Of a stretch of DNA of 5,020 nucleotides, positions 1,814 to 5,020 are shown piece after piece. The notes beneath the pieces were generated by a model that worked only from the letters and a program-made list of their open reading frames with translations, did no database searches and had not been told where the DNA came from. The stretch comes from a virus. Both the position numbers and the translations under genes were made by a program. Each line of letters opens with the position of its first letter. Positions within the stretch are counted from its first letter, which is position 1. The stretch spans positions 1 through 5,020 of IMG/VR virus record IMGVR_UViG_3300045988_002730. The stretch is one strand, 5' to 3'.

Positions 1814-3580
1814 ATGTCAAAAAATAGTGCTCGCAGACGTCAAAGATCGAATCATTTTTCTCAGATTCCTAACTCACCTATTCAACGCTCTGTTTTCGAT
1901 CGTTCTCATGACTATAAAACTACATTGGATTCCGGTTATTTGATTCCTTTCTTTGTAGATGAAGTTCTTCCCGGAGACACATTTAAGCTCCGCGTAAATG
2001 CGTTTGTTCGAATGAATACGCTTATTGCGCCATTCATGGACAATGTATTTATGGATACTTTCTTTTTCTTTGTTCCGACCCGTCTCGTTTGGGACAATTG
2101 GCAGAGATTTTGCGGTGAACAGAAAAATCCCGGAGATTCTACGGATTTCTTGATTCCTTCCCTTTCCGGAACGAATACTTTTGCTAATGGCACCATTTTT
2201 GATTACATGGGTTTGCCTACTGGTGTTTCATTAGACCCCGCAAATACTCCTATCAATGCTCTTCCTTTTAGAGCATATAACCTTATTTATAACGAATGGT
2301 TCCGCGATGAGAATCTCATTGATTCGATTCCAGTTTTAACTACCGATGGCCCTGACCCGATTTCTAATTACACGCTTCGTAAGCGTGCTAAACGGCATGA
2401 TTACTTTACTAGTGCTTTGCCTTGGCCCCAGAAAGGCCCCAGTGTAGATGTTGGTTTAACTGGTAATGCTCCTATTGTGGGATTTGGCAAAGATGGTTAT
2501 AAGTTTAGTTTCACTACTGACCCTACAGGCGTACAACCCCCTTCTTCTTTTTGGCAATTAGGTACGACCGAAGGCAATAATGCGAGTAAATTACAGGCCT
2601 CTTTTGGTGGTCGAGTTAGCGTCGGTAATCAAGCCCGAGCTTGGCAAAATTACAATTCATCTGTTTCTTCTTGGAATGATGTTATCCAGCAGCAAGATGA
2701 ATCTTCTTCTATTCGGTTAACCGCTTTGAGAGGCTCTGGTTCTTCCTCTTCCTATCAATTTAGTGGTGGTTATTTAATTCCTTCCGATTCTTCACAAACT
2801 CCGTACGCTGATTTATCTGGCGTTTCGGCTATAACAATTAATGATTTGCGTCAAGCATTTCAAATTCAAAAATTCTATGAAAAATGGGCTCGTGGAGGTT
2901 CTCGTTACACAGAAACCCTGCGAGTAATGTTTAATGTCATATCTCCTGATGCTCGGCTTCAACGTCCTGAGTACCTTGGTGGTACTCATTCTCGTGTCAA
3001 CGTCGTTCCGACAGCTCAGACTAGTAGCACCGATTCTGTGTCTCCTCAGTCTAATTTGTCAGCTTTCGGCGTTCTTGGTGATTCTGCCCATGGATTCAAT
3101 AAGTCGTTCGTTGAGCACGGTTACGTTATCGGTCTTGTCTGTCTCCGCGCTGATATTACTTATCAGCAGGGATTAAACCGTATGTGGTCTCGTCGCCAGT
3201 TGTTTGATTTCTACTGGCCTACTTTGGCTCACTTGGGTGAACAGGTTGTTTACAACAAGGAGATTTATGCACAGGGTACTGCCGAGGACAATGGAGTTTT
3301 CGGTTATCAGGAACGCTATGCTGAGTATCGTTACAAACCATCTATGATTACTGGCAAGTTACGTTCTACTGATGCTCAGACGCTTGATGTTTGGCATTTA
3401 GCGCAAAAGTTCGACACCTTGCCTAAACTTAATCAAGACTTTATCGAGGAAAATCCCCCGATTAATCGCGTGATTGCTGTTCAGAATGAACCGCAGTTCT
3501 TTGCTGACTTCTGGTTCGATTTGAAGACTTCTAGGCCTATGCCTGTGTACTCTGTACCTGGACTAGTCGATCACTTCTAA
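1814..3580 (+). CDS. VP1: Major capsid protein VP1 (588 aa, phiX174 F-like jelly-roll capsid protein of Gokushovirinae)
   Basis: N-terminus MSKNSARRRQRSNHFSQIPNSPIQRSVFDRSHDYKTTLDSGYLIPFFVDEVLPGDTF closely resembles Chlamydia and Bdellovibrio gokushovirus VP1. Conserved downstream block INDLRQAFQIQKFYEKWARGGSRYTETLRVMFNV. It is the longest ORF. AAGGA at 1800-1804 lies 9 nt upstream of the ATG. Confidence 0.97.
   Translation: MSKNSARRRQRSNHFSQIPNSPIQRSVFDRSHDYKTTLDSGYLIPFFVDEVLPGDTFKLRVNAFVRMNTLIAPFMDNVFMDTFFFFVPTRLVWDNWQRFCGEQKNPGDSTDFLIPSLSGTNTFANGTIFDYMGLPTGVSLDPANTPINALPFRAYNLIYNEWFRDENLIDSIPVLTTDGPDPISNYTLRKRAKRHDYFTSALPWPQKGPSVDVGLTGNAPIVGFGKDGYKFSFTTDPTGVQPPSSFWQLGTTEGNNASKLQASFGGRVSVGNQARAWQNYNSSVSSWNDVIQQQDESSSIRLTALRGSGSSSSYQFSGGYLIPSDSSQTPYADLSGVSAITINDLRQAFQIQKFYEKWARGGSRYTETLRVMFNVISPDARLQRPEYLGGTHSRVNVVPTAQTSSTDSVSPQSNLSAFGVLGDSAHGFNKSFVEHGYVIGLVCLRADITYQQGLNRMWSRRQLFDFYWPTLAHLGEQVVYNKEIYAQGTAEDNGVFGYQERYAEYRYKPSMITGKLRSTDAQTLDVWHLAQKFDTLPKLNQDFIEENPPINRVIAVQNEPQFFADFWFDLKTSRPMPVYSVPGLVDHF
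2476..2830 (+). other. Variable low-complexity insertion within VP1 (GFGKDGYKFSFTTDPTGVQPPSSFWQLGTTEGNNASKLQASFGGRVSVGNQARAWQNYNSSVSSWNDVIQQQDESSSIRLTALRGSGSSSSYQFSGGYLIPSDSSQTPYADLSGV). It corresponds to the gokushovirus threefold 'mushroom' protrusion loop.
   Basis: Ser/Gly/Gln/Asn-rich segment flanked by conserved VP1 blocks. In gokushoviruses a large insertion loop in VP1 forms the threefold protrusions that replace the phiX spike proteins. Boundaries are approximate. Confidence 0.55.
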
Positions 3581-3582
3581 TC

Positions 3583-3676
3583 TCGAAAGAGACGGGTTAT
3601 TCTGTTTTTACCGAGCCGACGCCCGCAAGAGGCAAGCGGGGCGATGGTAAACACGGAAATAACCCGTCGATCTAAA
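3583..3676 (+). promoter_or_regulatory. Long imperfect GC-rich nested hairpin in the VP1-VP2 intergenic region. The outer stem is gacgggttatt (3591-3601) paired with aataacccgtc (3658-3668), 11 bp perfect with imperfect extensions. The inner hairpin is cgcccgc/gcggggcg (3620-3626 / 3636-3643) with loop aagaggcaa.
   Basis: Inverted repeats read directly from the sequence. The region is markedly GC-rich relative to the genome. No T-run follows it, so it is not a classic intrinsic terminator. Its position after the capsid gene is analogous to the F-G intergenic hairpins of phiX174/G4 (primosome assembly / complementary-strand origin, mRNA stabiliser). Confidence 0.55.
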
Positions 3677-3696
3677 AATGTGGAAAGGACTACATT

Positions 3697-4440
3697 ATGT
3701 CGTTAGGTAATTTTCTTGGTTCTGTTGGAGGAGCTATCGGCGGTCTGTTTGGAGATGCTATAGGAGGCACCATAACAGGTGCTACGCTCGGTTCTGGTCT
3801 TGGTTCTATAGGTAGTACTTTAGGTACTGGAATGGGCCTTGTAGGCTCTGCCAAAGGCCTCTACGACAGTTTTAACAATACGTCTCTTAAAAACCAAATG
3901 GCGTATGACCAATTTAAATCCGAATTGGATTATCAATATTGGTCACGCAAAATGAGTAATCGCCATACCCTCGAGGTAGGTGATTTGCGTCAGGCTGGTT
4001 TAAATCCGATTCTTTCGGCTAATTCTGCCGGCAGTGTCGCCAGCGCGATTCCCAACGGTGCAATTCCCGAAACCTCTTCTCAACAATCTGCCGCTGGAGC
4101 AGCTAGAGAGGCGAACAGGATTAACGCTATGATTGGTGAAACCACATCGGCTAAAAATTTAGCGGAAGCTCAGGCTTCGATAATGAATGCAGAAACTGGA
4201 CGCATGGTAGGGATTGCATCAGCCCGTCGTTCTAATGCTGAGGCCGGACTTGCAAATACTCGTTCTTCTAATGAGCTTGCCTATCCGAATAATCAGCCTT
4301 CTTTATTTAAATACATCAATTCAGGTAAACAACTGGTTGAAGATTTGTTCGATCGTAACTATGGATTGCCCTCTAACGCTTCTCCTGCTCGCAGACAGCG
4401 CTATGAGGTATTCATCAATGGTGTAGGTCGTCGTCAGTAA
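3697..4440 (+). CDS. VP2: Minor capsid / DNA pilot protein VP2 (247 aa, phiX174 H-like)
   Basis: Gly-rich N-terminus with GxxxG repeats (MSLGNFLGSVGGAIGGLFGDAIGGTITGATLGSGLGSIGSTLGTGMGLVGSAKG) followed by an Ala/Gln/Asn-rich predicted helical region, as in gokushovirus VP2 and phiX H. AAGGA at 3685-3689 lies 7 nt before the ATG. Position is right after VP1. Confidence 0.85.
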   Translation: MSLGNFLGSVGGAIGGLFGDAIGGTITGATLGSGLGSIGSTLGTGMGLVGSAKGLYDSFNNTSLKNQMAYDQFKSELDYQYWSRKMSNRHTLEVGDLRQAGLNPILSANSAGSVASAIPNGAIPETSSQQSAAGAAREANRINAMIGETTSAKNLAEAQASIMNAETGRMVGIASARRSNAEAGLANTRSSNELAYPNNQPSLFKYINSGKQLVEDLFDRNYGLPSNASPARRQRYEVFINGVGRRQ

Positions 4441-4445
4441 AACAT

Positions 4446-4465
4446 CGCTCATAGAGCGTTTTTGG
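4446..4465 (+). terminator. Small hairpin cgctc-ata-gagcg (4446-4450 / 4454-4458) followed by TTTTT, just after the VP2 stop. Weak intrinsic terminator candidate.
   Basis: 5-bp GC-rich stem with a 3-nt loop, then T-run at 4459-4463. The stem is short. Confidence 0.35.
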
Positions 4466-4482: not shown

Positions 4483-4584
4483 ATGAAAATCACGACAGAT
4501 TGGCTGGATAAATTTTTTGACCTTTTTAACGAATTGGTTAAAATGCTCTTGTATCTTTATCATTTTTTTAGAGGAAAACTATGA
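4483..4584 (+). CDS. Small ORF of 33 aa (MKITTDWLDKFFDLFNELVKMLLYLYHFFRGKL), hypothetical. The stop overlaps the start of the J-like gene (ATGA).
   Basis: Strong SD AGGAGGA at 4473-4479 lies 3-4 nt before ATG 4483. The ORF is ATGA-coupled to the downstream gene. It is below the ORF-track size cutoff. It has an amphipathic/hydrophobic C-terminal half. There is no homology I can assert. A sigma70-like promoter candidate lies inside it (see the feature at 4517..4544), which tempers confidence. Confidence 0.35.
   Translation: MKITTDWLDKFFDLFNELVKMLLYLYHFFRGKL
4517..4544 (+). promoter_or_regulatory. Sigma70-like promoter candidate. -35 TTGACC (4517-4522), 16-nt spacer, -10 TAAAAT (4539-4544). It would drive the J-like gene and read through into VP4.
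   Basis: 5/6 and 5/6 matches to the TTGACA/TATAAT consensus with acceptable spacing. The predicted TSS near 4551 leaves a ~30-nt leader containing SD GAGGAAAA (4571-4578) before ATG 4581. Not experimentally supported. Confidence 0.3.
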
Positions 4585-4694
4585 GACGCCGTCGTTTATC
4601 CCGCAGAACTTCCCGCCGTTTTTTCCGTAAAGGTCTCAAAGTCCGCCGTCGTAACCTCCGTGCGAGACCTATGAGAGGCGGATTCAGAATTTGA
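4581..4694 (+). CDS. VP8: Arginine-rich small DNA-binding protein (37 aa, MRRRRLSRRTSRRFFRKGLKVRRRNLRARPMRGGFRI), phiX174 J-like / gokushovirus VP8-like DNA-packaging protein
   Basis: The protein is extremely basic, with 14 Arg and 2 Lys in 37 aa. SD GAGGAAAA is immediately upstream. It sits between VP2 and VP4, where gokushoviruses encode their J-like ORF8. It is missing from the ORF track only because of its size. Confidence 0.75.
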   Translation: MRRRRLSRRTSRRFFRKGLKVRRRNLRARPMRGGFRI

Positions 4695-4695
4695 G

Positions 4696-4709
4696 GTTCC
4701 ACGTGGAAC
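4696..4709 (+). other. Perfect 14-nt palindrome gttccacgtggaac with a CACGTG core, directly after the J-like stop codon.
   Basis: The sequence is self-complementary. It shares the CCACGTG core with the palindrome at 1741-1747 in the VP3-VP1 spacer. Possible protein-binding site or small hairpin. Confidence 0.4.
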
Positions 4710-4713
4710 GGAA

Positions 4714-4741
4714 GGCGTCAATAAATTGGCGCCTTTTTTTT
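4714..4741 (+). terminator. Rho-independent terminator. 8-bp stem ggcgtcaa/ttggcgcc (one G-U pair) with a 4-nt loop, then T8. It lies downstream of the J-like gene and directly abuts the VP4 start codon.
   Basis: 4714-4721 pairs with 4726-4733. T-run at 4734-4741. AA upstream at 4712-4713. The ATG of VP4 begins at 4742. Confidence 0.65.
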
Positions 4742-5020
4742 ATGACTTGTTATCACCCGATTACTGCATATTGGAGCAGGACGTTAAAAACTAAACTTGG
4801 TACTCCTGAACTTGGAGAGTTTCAAATTCCGTGCGGTCAGTGTATTGGTTGTCGTTTAGATCGCTCGCTGGATTCTGCCGTGCGAGCCCATCATGAGAGT
4901 TTGTTATATGATCGTAATTTCTTTCTCACCCTCACATATAGTCCGGAGTATTTGCCTCCTTTTGGTTCTCTTATTCCTCGGGACCTCACGTTGTTTTGGA
5001 AACGAATTAGAAAGCGCGGC
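4742..5020 (+). CDS. VP4: Replication initiation protein VP4, N-terminal part (MTCYHPITAYWSRTLKTKLGTPELGEFQIPCGQCIGCRLDRS...). This is the same gene as feature 1..837. It continues past the window end because the window wraps the circle.
   Basis: ATG 4742 is the first in-frame start after an in-frame TAA at 4652-4654. The N-terminus M.CY.P..AY matches the gokushovirus VP4 consensus start. Bases 4808-5020 duplicate 1-213. Confidence 0.85.
   Translation, partial: MTCYHPITAYWSRTLKTKLGTPELGEFQIPCGQCIGCRLDRSLDSAVRAHHESLLYDRNFFLTLTYSPEYLPPFGSLIPRDLTLFWKRIRKRG

Follow-up and report, generated by a model that had tools for sequence, protein, structure and literature searches.

Introduction

Complementary-strand origins (ori(-)) of the G4 type are built of three stem-loops, and stem-loop I is followed on its 3' side by a conserved CTG start site. 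The plasmid single-strand origins ssoA, ssoU and ssoT and the ori(-) of filamentous phages depend on RNA polymerase; they are long imperfect hairpins that are orientation-specific on ssDNA, and they form exchangeable, host-specific cassettes that are far more conserved than the replicons that carry them. The intergenic hairpins of phiX174 stabilise mRNA, and the F-G hairpin of this phage has a dual role, in DNA and in RNA. Deep mutagenesis of phiX174 has shown that the T_F terminator overlaps ori(-) and the PriA site, and that most substitutions there are tolerated. For the reekeekee- and roodoodooviruses, conserved intergenic hairpins with compensatory substitutions have been proposed as candidate ori(-) (Virus Evol 2022, PMC9865509). 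One of these hairpins is 64 nt long and has an identical loop in otherwise strongly diverged genomes; its function was not assigned by the authors. Unlike the hairpin described below, they belong to another Microviridae lineage, adjoin Rep and differ in sequence.

In the human gut, gokushoviruses rank among the most abundant ssDNA phages. In the open literature we found no mapped replication origin, (+) or (-), for this group. Here, we describe a hairpin between the capsid gene VP1 and the pilot gene VP2 of a gokushovirus genome and compare it with these systems.

A compound hairpin follows the capsid gene

The window that was analysed, 5,020 nt in length, is a complete circular gokushovirus genome of 4807 nt, of which bases 1-213 recur at 4808-5020. 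All genes are on the + strand: the initiator VP4 (4742 across the junction to 837), VP5 (830-1096), the scaffold VP3 (1202-1702), the capsid VP1 (1814-3580, stop codon 3578-3580), the pilot VP2 (3697-4440) and an Arg-rich J/VP8-like protein (4581-4694). Of the records in GenBank, those nearest to it are Gokushovirus WZ-2015a (human faeces, 86% identity) and Dulem virus 105 (lemur faeces, 82%). Compared with KT264822, the VP4 of the window misses 11 residues (PAITFKYADAD) and 4 residues (ISLR). Both gaps coincide with the edges of the 213-nt terminal repeat (4807/4808, where 4808 equals position 1, and 213/214), and they may be strain-variant branch points of the assembly, not the true genotype.

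The spacer between VP1 and VP2 is 116 nt long. It contains a compound hairpin of 78 nt (3591-3668, + strand), which was identified by folding, as an inverted repeat and with a covariance model, and which begins 10 nt past the VP1 stop. The VP2 ribosome-binding site (GAAAGGAC) and start codon (3697) follow at 3683-3699. The short distance from the hairpin to VP2 leaves no space for a promoter, so that transcription of VP2 must pass through the hairpin. In phiX174, the F-G hairpin is likewise a stable + strand structure that follows the major capsid gene, and its spacer measures about 110 nt. This location, directly downstream of the capsid gene, is the same as in phiX174 and G4, which by analogy speaks in favour of an ori(-).

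The basal stem is formed by the arms GACGGGTTATT (3591-3601) and AATAACCCGTC (3658-3668), as seen in the inverted-repeat and pairing analyses. Its outer pairs covary, and the GTTATT of its 5' arm is invariant in both of the apex types described below. On top of it lies the middle stem, made up of CTGTTTTTACCG (3602-3613) and TGGTAAACACGG with the bulged A3657 (3645-3657), the latter being invariant in types A and B. This stem consists of 3602-3605 paired with 3653-3656 (including T3603.G3655) and 3607-3613 paired with 3645-3651 (closed by G3613.T3645); it has a T3606.C3652 mismatch and two invariant G.T pairs. The lower stem thereby comprises 22 bp with one bulge and one mismatch. The G+C-rich apex of the window, GCCGACGCCCGCAAGAGGCAAGCGGGGC (3615-3642), was defined from the fold and the alignment of relatives and has the helices GCC/GGC, CGC/GCG and GC/GC with the loop AAGAG at 3627-3631. 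Directly 3' of the stem is CGATC (3668-3672), which is invariant in type-A genomes and missing in type B. The G+C content is 56% for the hairpin, 79% for the apex and 43% for the genome.

An earlier note on this DNA had described a hairpin of about 94 nt at 3583-3676 with an 11-bp perfect core (3591-3601 / 3658-3668) around a G+C-rich apex. The inverted-repeat search recovered the core and the apex that it encloses. The hairpin is thus real, but it is 78 nt long: the conserved structure does not extend into 3583-3590 and 3669-3676, as these flanks are variable and unpaired in relatives. A small CTC-GAAA-GAG hairpin at 3581-3590 is also variable and is not maintained among relatives.

The same note had named shuffled controls as a test, and the hairpin folds better than these, with z about -4 for both DNA and RNA. 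The DNA fold of the + strand has -23.6 kcal/mol, against -13.3 +/- 2.5 for shuffles (z -4.1), and 0/200 dinucleotide shuffles were as good. The RNA fold of the + strand has -44 kcal/mol (z -4.4) and the DNA fold of the minus strand -21.4 kcal/mol (z -3.8). The two invariant G.T pairs favour the + strand. Among the 100-nt ssDNA windows of the genome the hairpin ranks 2nd in stability (-23.6 against a mean of -9.5, sd 4.0). The same sliding-fold scan also puts the known PriA/T_F hairpin 2nd in phiX174. The 1st-ranked fold of the gokushovirus genome is the VP3-VP1 spacer (1708-1773), which carries a phiX-like nick motif. Judged by its DNA fold (z -4.1), the hairpin is a stable, non-coding + strand structure that would be expected to remain duplex under SSB coating.

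Two coding explanations of the spacer were rejected. Read-through of the VP1 stop codon would give an open frame of 45 codons in the window, but in type B and in TAG/TGA variants this frame ends after 5 codons. The small ORFs 3577-3654 (minus strand) and 3644-3706 (+ strand) have no ribosome-binding site and extend into the variable flanks.

Covariation and sequence invariance

Relatives were gathered by a VP1 search and two exact-pattern scans (IMG/VR, ENA/JGI). The 38 distinct sequence variants of the hairpin fall into two forms, apex type A, which is that of the window, and apex type B. Within type A, the pair 3592/3667 is A-T, C-G or T-A, and the pair 3595/3664 is either G-C or A-T. Type B, to which Dulem virus 105 and other genomes belong, retains GTTATTCTGTT.TTACCGAG ... 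GATGGTAA..ACGGAAATAAC, and two further pairs are altered on both sides. In this type T3607-A3651 is replaced by G-C, and position 3606, in the former T.C mismatch, is paired (column pairs 17/65 and 18/64). The type-B apex is an unrelated hairpin, GGGGCGAGGTC-CCCCATA-GACCTCGC, with two compensatory pairs in locus L105. Six base pairs are doubly changed, so that the conservation of structure with compensatory changes, which the earlier note had named as a check, is indeed seen in the relatives. Four of the pairs shared by the two types were changed on both sides and none on one side only. For the 24 pairs common to both types, 94% of the cells are paired, compared to 28-60% when the partner column is slid. 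Together with a z of about -4, the compensatory changes and the excess of paired cells indicate that the structure of the hairpin is selected.

The sequence was found to be constrained as well. We aligned 29 distinct genomes over their whole length, of which 21 are type A; all counts of invariant columns refer to the type-A genomes. These have a mean pairwise column identity of 0.76, and of 0.56-0.75 at third codon positions. The core of the hairpin (3593-3666) is 0.995 identical, with 70/74 columns invariant, which makes it the most conserved 74-nt window out of all 4807. Nowhere else in the genome are there invariant runs as long as the two in the core (3596-3625 and 3631-3663). For comparison, 17% of columns are invariant at third codon positions (Fisher's test against the core, p = 4e-45), 60% at first and second codon positions (p = 3e-11) and 35% in other non-coding DNA (p = 6e-24). 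The edges of conservation are sharp and located at the stem (3593 and 3666), while the flank from the hairpin to the VP2 ribosome-binding site is variable. A recent recombinational sweep was considered as a cause of the invariance. This is unlikely, since the limits of conservation coincide with those of the stem and covariation has accumulated at the outermost pairs, both of which point to purifying selection. We conclude that the constraint acts on the sequence of the core and not on pairing alone.

Occurrence and exchange of the hairpin

The element was found in about 70 loci of IMG/VR and ENA/JGI, nearly all of them contigs of 4.7-4.9 kb and many labelled human-gut metagenome. There is one copy per genome, always between VP1 and VP2, and the covariance model (R1) matches once in every member of the clade. 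With a threshold of E <= 1, the model gave no match in 62 gokushovirus loci with a VP1 of <=58% identity, and none in the E. coli gokushovirus prophages, phiX174, G4, St-1, ID21, FL68 or MG1. In more distant gokushoviruses, VP1 is followed by a short spacer, a small ORF or an ordinary terminator. One distant gokushovirus (L067) carries a 40-nt hairpin, GACCAGGGGCGAGAAAGATTTTAATCTTTCTTTCCCCTAGTC, about 100 nt past the VP1 stop, whose A+T palindromic apex recalls the T_F/PriA hairpin of phiX174.

A metagenome scan in which the apex was left free yielded types A and B only, plus one chance match (L125), and a match in IMG/VR (L103) was discarded as a chance half-match. When 185,579 species genomes were scanned for the exact pattern of the 5' arm, no prophage copy and no host repeat was found; the single match, in an ftsA-like coding region of a SAR86 MAG, compares with about 4 matches expected by chance, as estimated from the size of the collection. 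A plasmid BLAST with the hairpin returned chance matches only (E = 0.7), and Rfam gave no match for the whole window on either strand at E <= 1. The hairpin is real, strongly selected and clade-specific.

Within the clade, the alignment columns that separate type A from type B lie only within 3587-3672. The N-terminus of VP2 (3697-3800) occurs as two very different alleles, MSLGNF(LG)... and MGLFSS(IG).... Each hairpin type is found with either VP2 N-terminus, so that all four combinations occur, which implies recombination within about 30 nt of the hairpin. The hairpin behaves as a swappable cassette. In the whole-genome alignment we found no phage protein or gene that co-varies with hairpin type, suggesting that the hairpin is read by a host factor or acts as nucleic acid itself. 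In two loci (L147 1-2600 and L112) the VP1-hairpin-VP2 block has the opposite orientation to the J-VP4-VP5-VP3 block; the two contigs probably represent chimeric or snap-back assemblies and not real genomes.

Recombination right beside the hairpin, as seen from the four combinations, and the fact that the element is an insertion relative to the E. coli relatives could also be read as signs of a recombination site, either dif-like for XerCD (of the enterogokushovirus or the folded CTX-phage type) or a selfish palindromic insertion that is functionless for the phage. The best dif match in the genome has 11/28 mismatches, which equals that of shuffled genomes, and none is found in the hairpin; the dif site of enterogokushoviruses lies between VP8 and VP4. 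In addition, no prophage copy or multicopy host element turned up in the scan of 185,579 species genomes and no copy in plasmids, and the strong purifying selection on the core speaks against junk. We consider either form of this explanation scarcely credible.

Terminators and RNA-level roles

The E. coli gokushovirus prophages are the nearest characterised relatives and share about 70% nt identity with the window in VP1, right to the stop codon. Their VP1-VP2 junction (L133 4918-4971) has an intrinsic terminator, GGCCTC-TGCG-GAGGCC (GGCCTCtgcgGAGGCC), followed by T7. Since this terminator sits at the exact place of the hairpin, the hairpin has replaced a plain terminator specifically in this clade. 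The ancestral role of the site may then be transcriptional, as a plain intrinsic terminator is all that these relatives have there. The genomic position is shared, but the prophage terminator has a 6-bp G+C stem and a tetraloop before its T7, in contrast to the 78 nt, the lack of a T-run and the far stronger constraint of the hairpin.

The hairpin itself was rejected as an intrinsic terminator. Its stem is followed by GATCTAAAAATG, so that the earlier statement that it has no T-run holds, and a terminator scan called 4446-4458 and 4710-4737 but not the hairpin. T-run hairpins stand behind VP5 (1138-1185, with the hairpin at 1138-1178 and a T7 run, found by eye), VP2 (4446-4463, scan) and the J-like gene (4710-4745, scan). 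Around the last of these, a perfect palindrome GTTCCACGTGGAAC is seen at 4696-4709, and an invariant run of 23 nt (4730-4752) spans the T-run and the VP4 start. The spacers with hairpins behind VP5 and VP2 drift, with identities of 0.63 and 0.76.

The hairpin could be a purely RNA-level element in the VP1-VP2 transcript that controls the ratio of VP1 to VP2 expression, acting as a barrier to 3' exonucleases or as an RNase III-type processing site, in place of the terminator of the relatives. The strong RNA fold (-44 kcal/mol, z -4.4) is in accordance with this, as are the terminator at exactly this position in the E. coli prophages and the two invariant G.U-type pairs, which are more typical of RNA helices. 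In addition, the hairpin is necessarily transcribed, VP2 being without a promoter of its own, and the intergenic hairpins of phiX174 are terminators. RNase III hairpins are defined by about two turns (20 bp or more) of dsRNA, a length that the 22-bp lower stem is predicted to reach. Such elements need shape and not sequence, however, whereas here 70/74 positions are frozen, loops and bulges included, and the inner 20 bp tolerate no compensatory changes while the outer pairs covary freely. By contrast, two spacers that hold terminators in this genome drift (identities of 0.63 and 0.76), and the hairpin lacks a U-tract. We regard an exclusive RNA role as unlikely, though as the main rival explanation and one to be taken seriously.

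Near-total invariance suggests base-specific contacts, and these could also be made in RNA or RF DNA by a protein or by RNA polymerase. The hairpin would then be a cis element, either a translational operator of VP2 or a put-like antiterminator RNA. It lies 15 nt upstream of the VP2 ribosome-binding site, and two T-run terminators (4446-4463 and 4710-4745) are located downstream for antitermination to pass. This explanation is improbable in our judgement: no phage gene co-varies with hairpin type, Rfam has no match even at E <= 1, and the flank between the hairpin and the ribosome-binding site is variable. We know of no precedent in Microviridae for such an operator or antiterminator.

A candidate viral-strand origin lies elsewhere

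The top-ranked fold of the genome contains a hairpin (1708-1746, VP3-VP1 spacer) that bears CTACTTGTTGTAAC in its loop, with GTGACACC next to it, to 1752. The motif CTACTTGATGTAAC...GTGACACC (loop CTACTTG(A/T)TGTAAC) resembles the phiX174 origin CAACTTG^ATATTAATAAC...GACCAC. In the same VP3-VP1 spacer, the nick motif is present in the E. coli prophages (L133 3090-3135) and in about 27 gokushoviruses (L021-L083) whose VP1 is about 50% identical, and across those gokushoviruses the stem shows compensatory changes. From this sequence comparison, we propose 1708-1752 as a candidate viral-strand (+) origin; our survey of the open literature found no paper that describes the nick-motif hairpin in gokushoviruses. 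A second hairpin, CACCACACGA..CGTGTTGGTG, is located at 1749-1773, right after the candidate.

The nick motif at 1708-1752 removes the (+) origin as a competing role for the hairpin at 3591-3668. HUH initiators often nick hairpin loops, which would fit a VP4 rolling-circle nick site in an extruded VP1-VP2 hairpin, and the 3' arm has AATAAC, as has the phiX origin. The conserved phiX-like motif nevertheless sits in a different hairpin, and the apex loop is entirely different in types A and B, while VP4 is 91-96% conserved. A (+) origin at 3591-3668 is thereby largely refuted.

Comparison with known complementary-strand origins

The earlier note had proposed a complementary-strand origin or primosome assembly site. 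The first part is supported as a candidate, whereas the assignment as a PriA or primosome site is not, as similarity to the phiX PriA site is lacking. Local alignments to the PriA sites of phiX and FL68 scored at or below the shuffle mean (p 0.66-0.76), and that to the F-G hairpin of MG1 was not significant (p 0.08-0.09). The hexamer AAGCGG was dismissed as a resemblance to the PriA site, being confined to type A and not significant. The phiX174 hairpin tolerates most point mutations, and its apex is an A+T palindrome with a T-run after it, in contrast to the hairpin here, with its G+C-rich apex, no T-run and almost invariant sequence. The F-G hairpin of the Gequatroviruses FL68 and MG1 has the same AAAAATTTTAATTTTT apex as the phiX type, with a compensated stem.

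The DnaG-dependent origins of G4, alpha3 and St-1 resemble the hairpin in that they are non-coding, conserved well above neutral, and positionally mobile or exchangeable as cassettes among related phages. They differ in having three separate stem-loops, compared to one compound hairpin with a variable 3' flank and no conserved CTG 3' of it. There was no significant sequence similarity to the G4/alpha3 origins; the only common stretch, and the only near-significant match between the spacers, is AAAAGGACTA, which is shared by the ribosome-binding site regions of VP2 and of G4 gene G. The VP2 region (3682-3692) reads GAAAAGGACTAC in relatives and GGAAAGGACTAC in the window, and that of G4 gene G (L135 about 2106-2115) reads CAAAAGGACTAA.

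Spacers of Bullavirinae, from G4, alpha3-like phages and Gequatroviruses (L135 1985-2120; L137 2567-2681; L136 2594-2693; L138 1985-2083; L139 1988-2086), served as a positive control for an origin. Over 117 nt, the G4 origin (F-G spacer) and the G-H spacer of ID21 are 77% identical, compared to 49% at third positions of F, and the G4 F-G spacer is also similar to the G-H spacer of St-1. FL68 and MG1, with an F gene 82% identical to that of G4, carry a phiX-type hairpin at F-G instead. A genuine microvirus ori(-) is thus conserved above neutral, mobile and swapped between close relatives, and the hairpin behaves in the same way.

Unlike ssoA and the M13 ori(-), the hairpin has no -35/-10-like hexamers, no CS-6 and no plasmid homologue. 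No promoter-like sites, with no -35/-10-like hexamers, were found in 3581-3696 on either strand, and the hairpin sequence contains no TAGCG of the CS-6 motif (TAGCGT). Readings of the stem as a DnaA box, a promoter mimic or CS-6 were dropped, as neither inspection by eye nor scanning gave a convincing match.

A possible host and its CRISPR array

One contig of 8.3 kb (L140, ENA ERZ1309111 NODE_4264) combines Parasutterella-like genes with a type I-E CRISPR array of 12 repeats (CGGTTCATCCCCGCTTACGCGGGGAACTC) at 4840-5636. Its GluQRS gene is 94% identical to a Parasutterella sp. protein. The last CRISPR unit runs directly into phage sequence at window position 4185, inside VP2, and this is the only spacer of the array that matches the phage clade. 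The join was probably created during assembly, through a spacer that targets VP2, and the contig suggests a betaproteobacterial gut host (Parasutterella) for the clade.

The array raises the idea that the hairpin is an RNA decoy that mimics the host CRISPR repeat, that is, an anti-CRISPR RNA, with CCCGC...GCGGGG..ATGGTAAAC.CGG of the type-A apex and 3' arm resembling the type I-E repeat GAGTTCCCCGCGTAAGCGGGGATGAACCG. The hairpin and the repeat have an exact 8-mer (AAGCGGGG) in common, and the array belongs to a Parasutterella-like contig with a spacer against the clade. The alignment does not reach significance, however (p = 0.06 with type A and 0.43 with type B). As a mimic, the hairpin would carry several insertions and a loop of 9 nt in place of a tetraloop, and the type-B apex has no similarity to the repeat though the remainder of the hairpin is conserved. 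A decoy is therefore very improbable.

Discussion

Taken together, the invariance of the core, its sharp edges at the stem, the cassette behaviour and the presence of T-run terminators and of the nick motif elsewhere in the genome fit a complementary-strand origin better than a plain terminator. The idea of the earlier note survives as the best explanation, albeit a tentative one to which we assign slightly less than an even chance. Our candidate reading, held with the same reserve, is that the hairpin is the minus-strand origin of this gokushovirus clade.

A possible course of events, including the priming function and the reader that we infer, is as follows. The circular + strand would enter the cell and become coated by SSB, and the 78-nt hairpin would stay duplex on the coated viral ssDNA. 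A host priming factor, which could be primase, a PriA-type loader or another factor, would read the hairpin largely base by base, by contacting individual bases of the A+T-rich middle stem and of the bulges, and would start second-strand synthesis. The mRNA being the same strand, the hairpin is also transcribed at the end of the VP1 message, which it would end or interrupt and where it probably blocks 3' exonucleases or is processed, as at the F-G hairpin of phiX174. The 22-bp lower stem could serve as the exonuclease barrier and is a plausible substrate for RNase III, a step that we likewise suggest on the basis of the predicted fold. Because viral ssDNA and mRNA are the same strand, an RNA-level role and an ssDNA role are inseparable by computation.

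Origin function alone does not predict the extreme invariance, as the PriA hairpin of phiX174 tolerates most substitutions, and the constraint on the hairpin may have another cause. A more specific proposal, which we think rather unlikely, is that the hairpin represents a new class of ori(-) that is read sequence-specifically, is not of the PriA, G4 or RNA-polymerase type, uses a factor of Parasutterella and is an exchangeable cassette with two apex alleles.

The genome thus offers two concrete candidates, a (+) origin hairpin at 1708-1752 and a (-) origin hairpin at 3591-3668. Should the hairpin act in RNA only, it would be an expression signal under unusual constraint that took the place of an ordinary terminator. 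If it is an ori(-), it would account for the striking island of conservation and supply a compact ssDNA origin, dependent on orientation, with which synthetic microviruses or phagemids could be built for a gut betaproteobacterium, and it would define how these phages recruit the priming machinery of their host.
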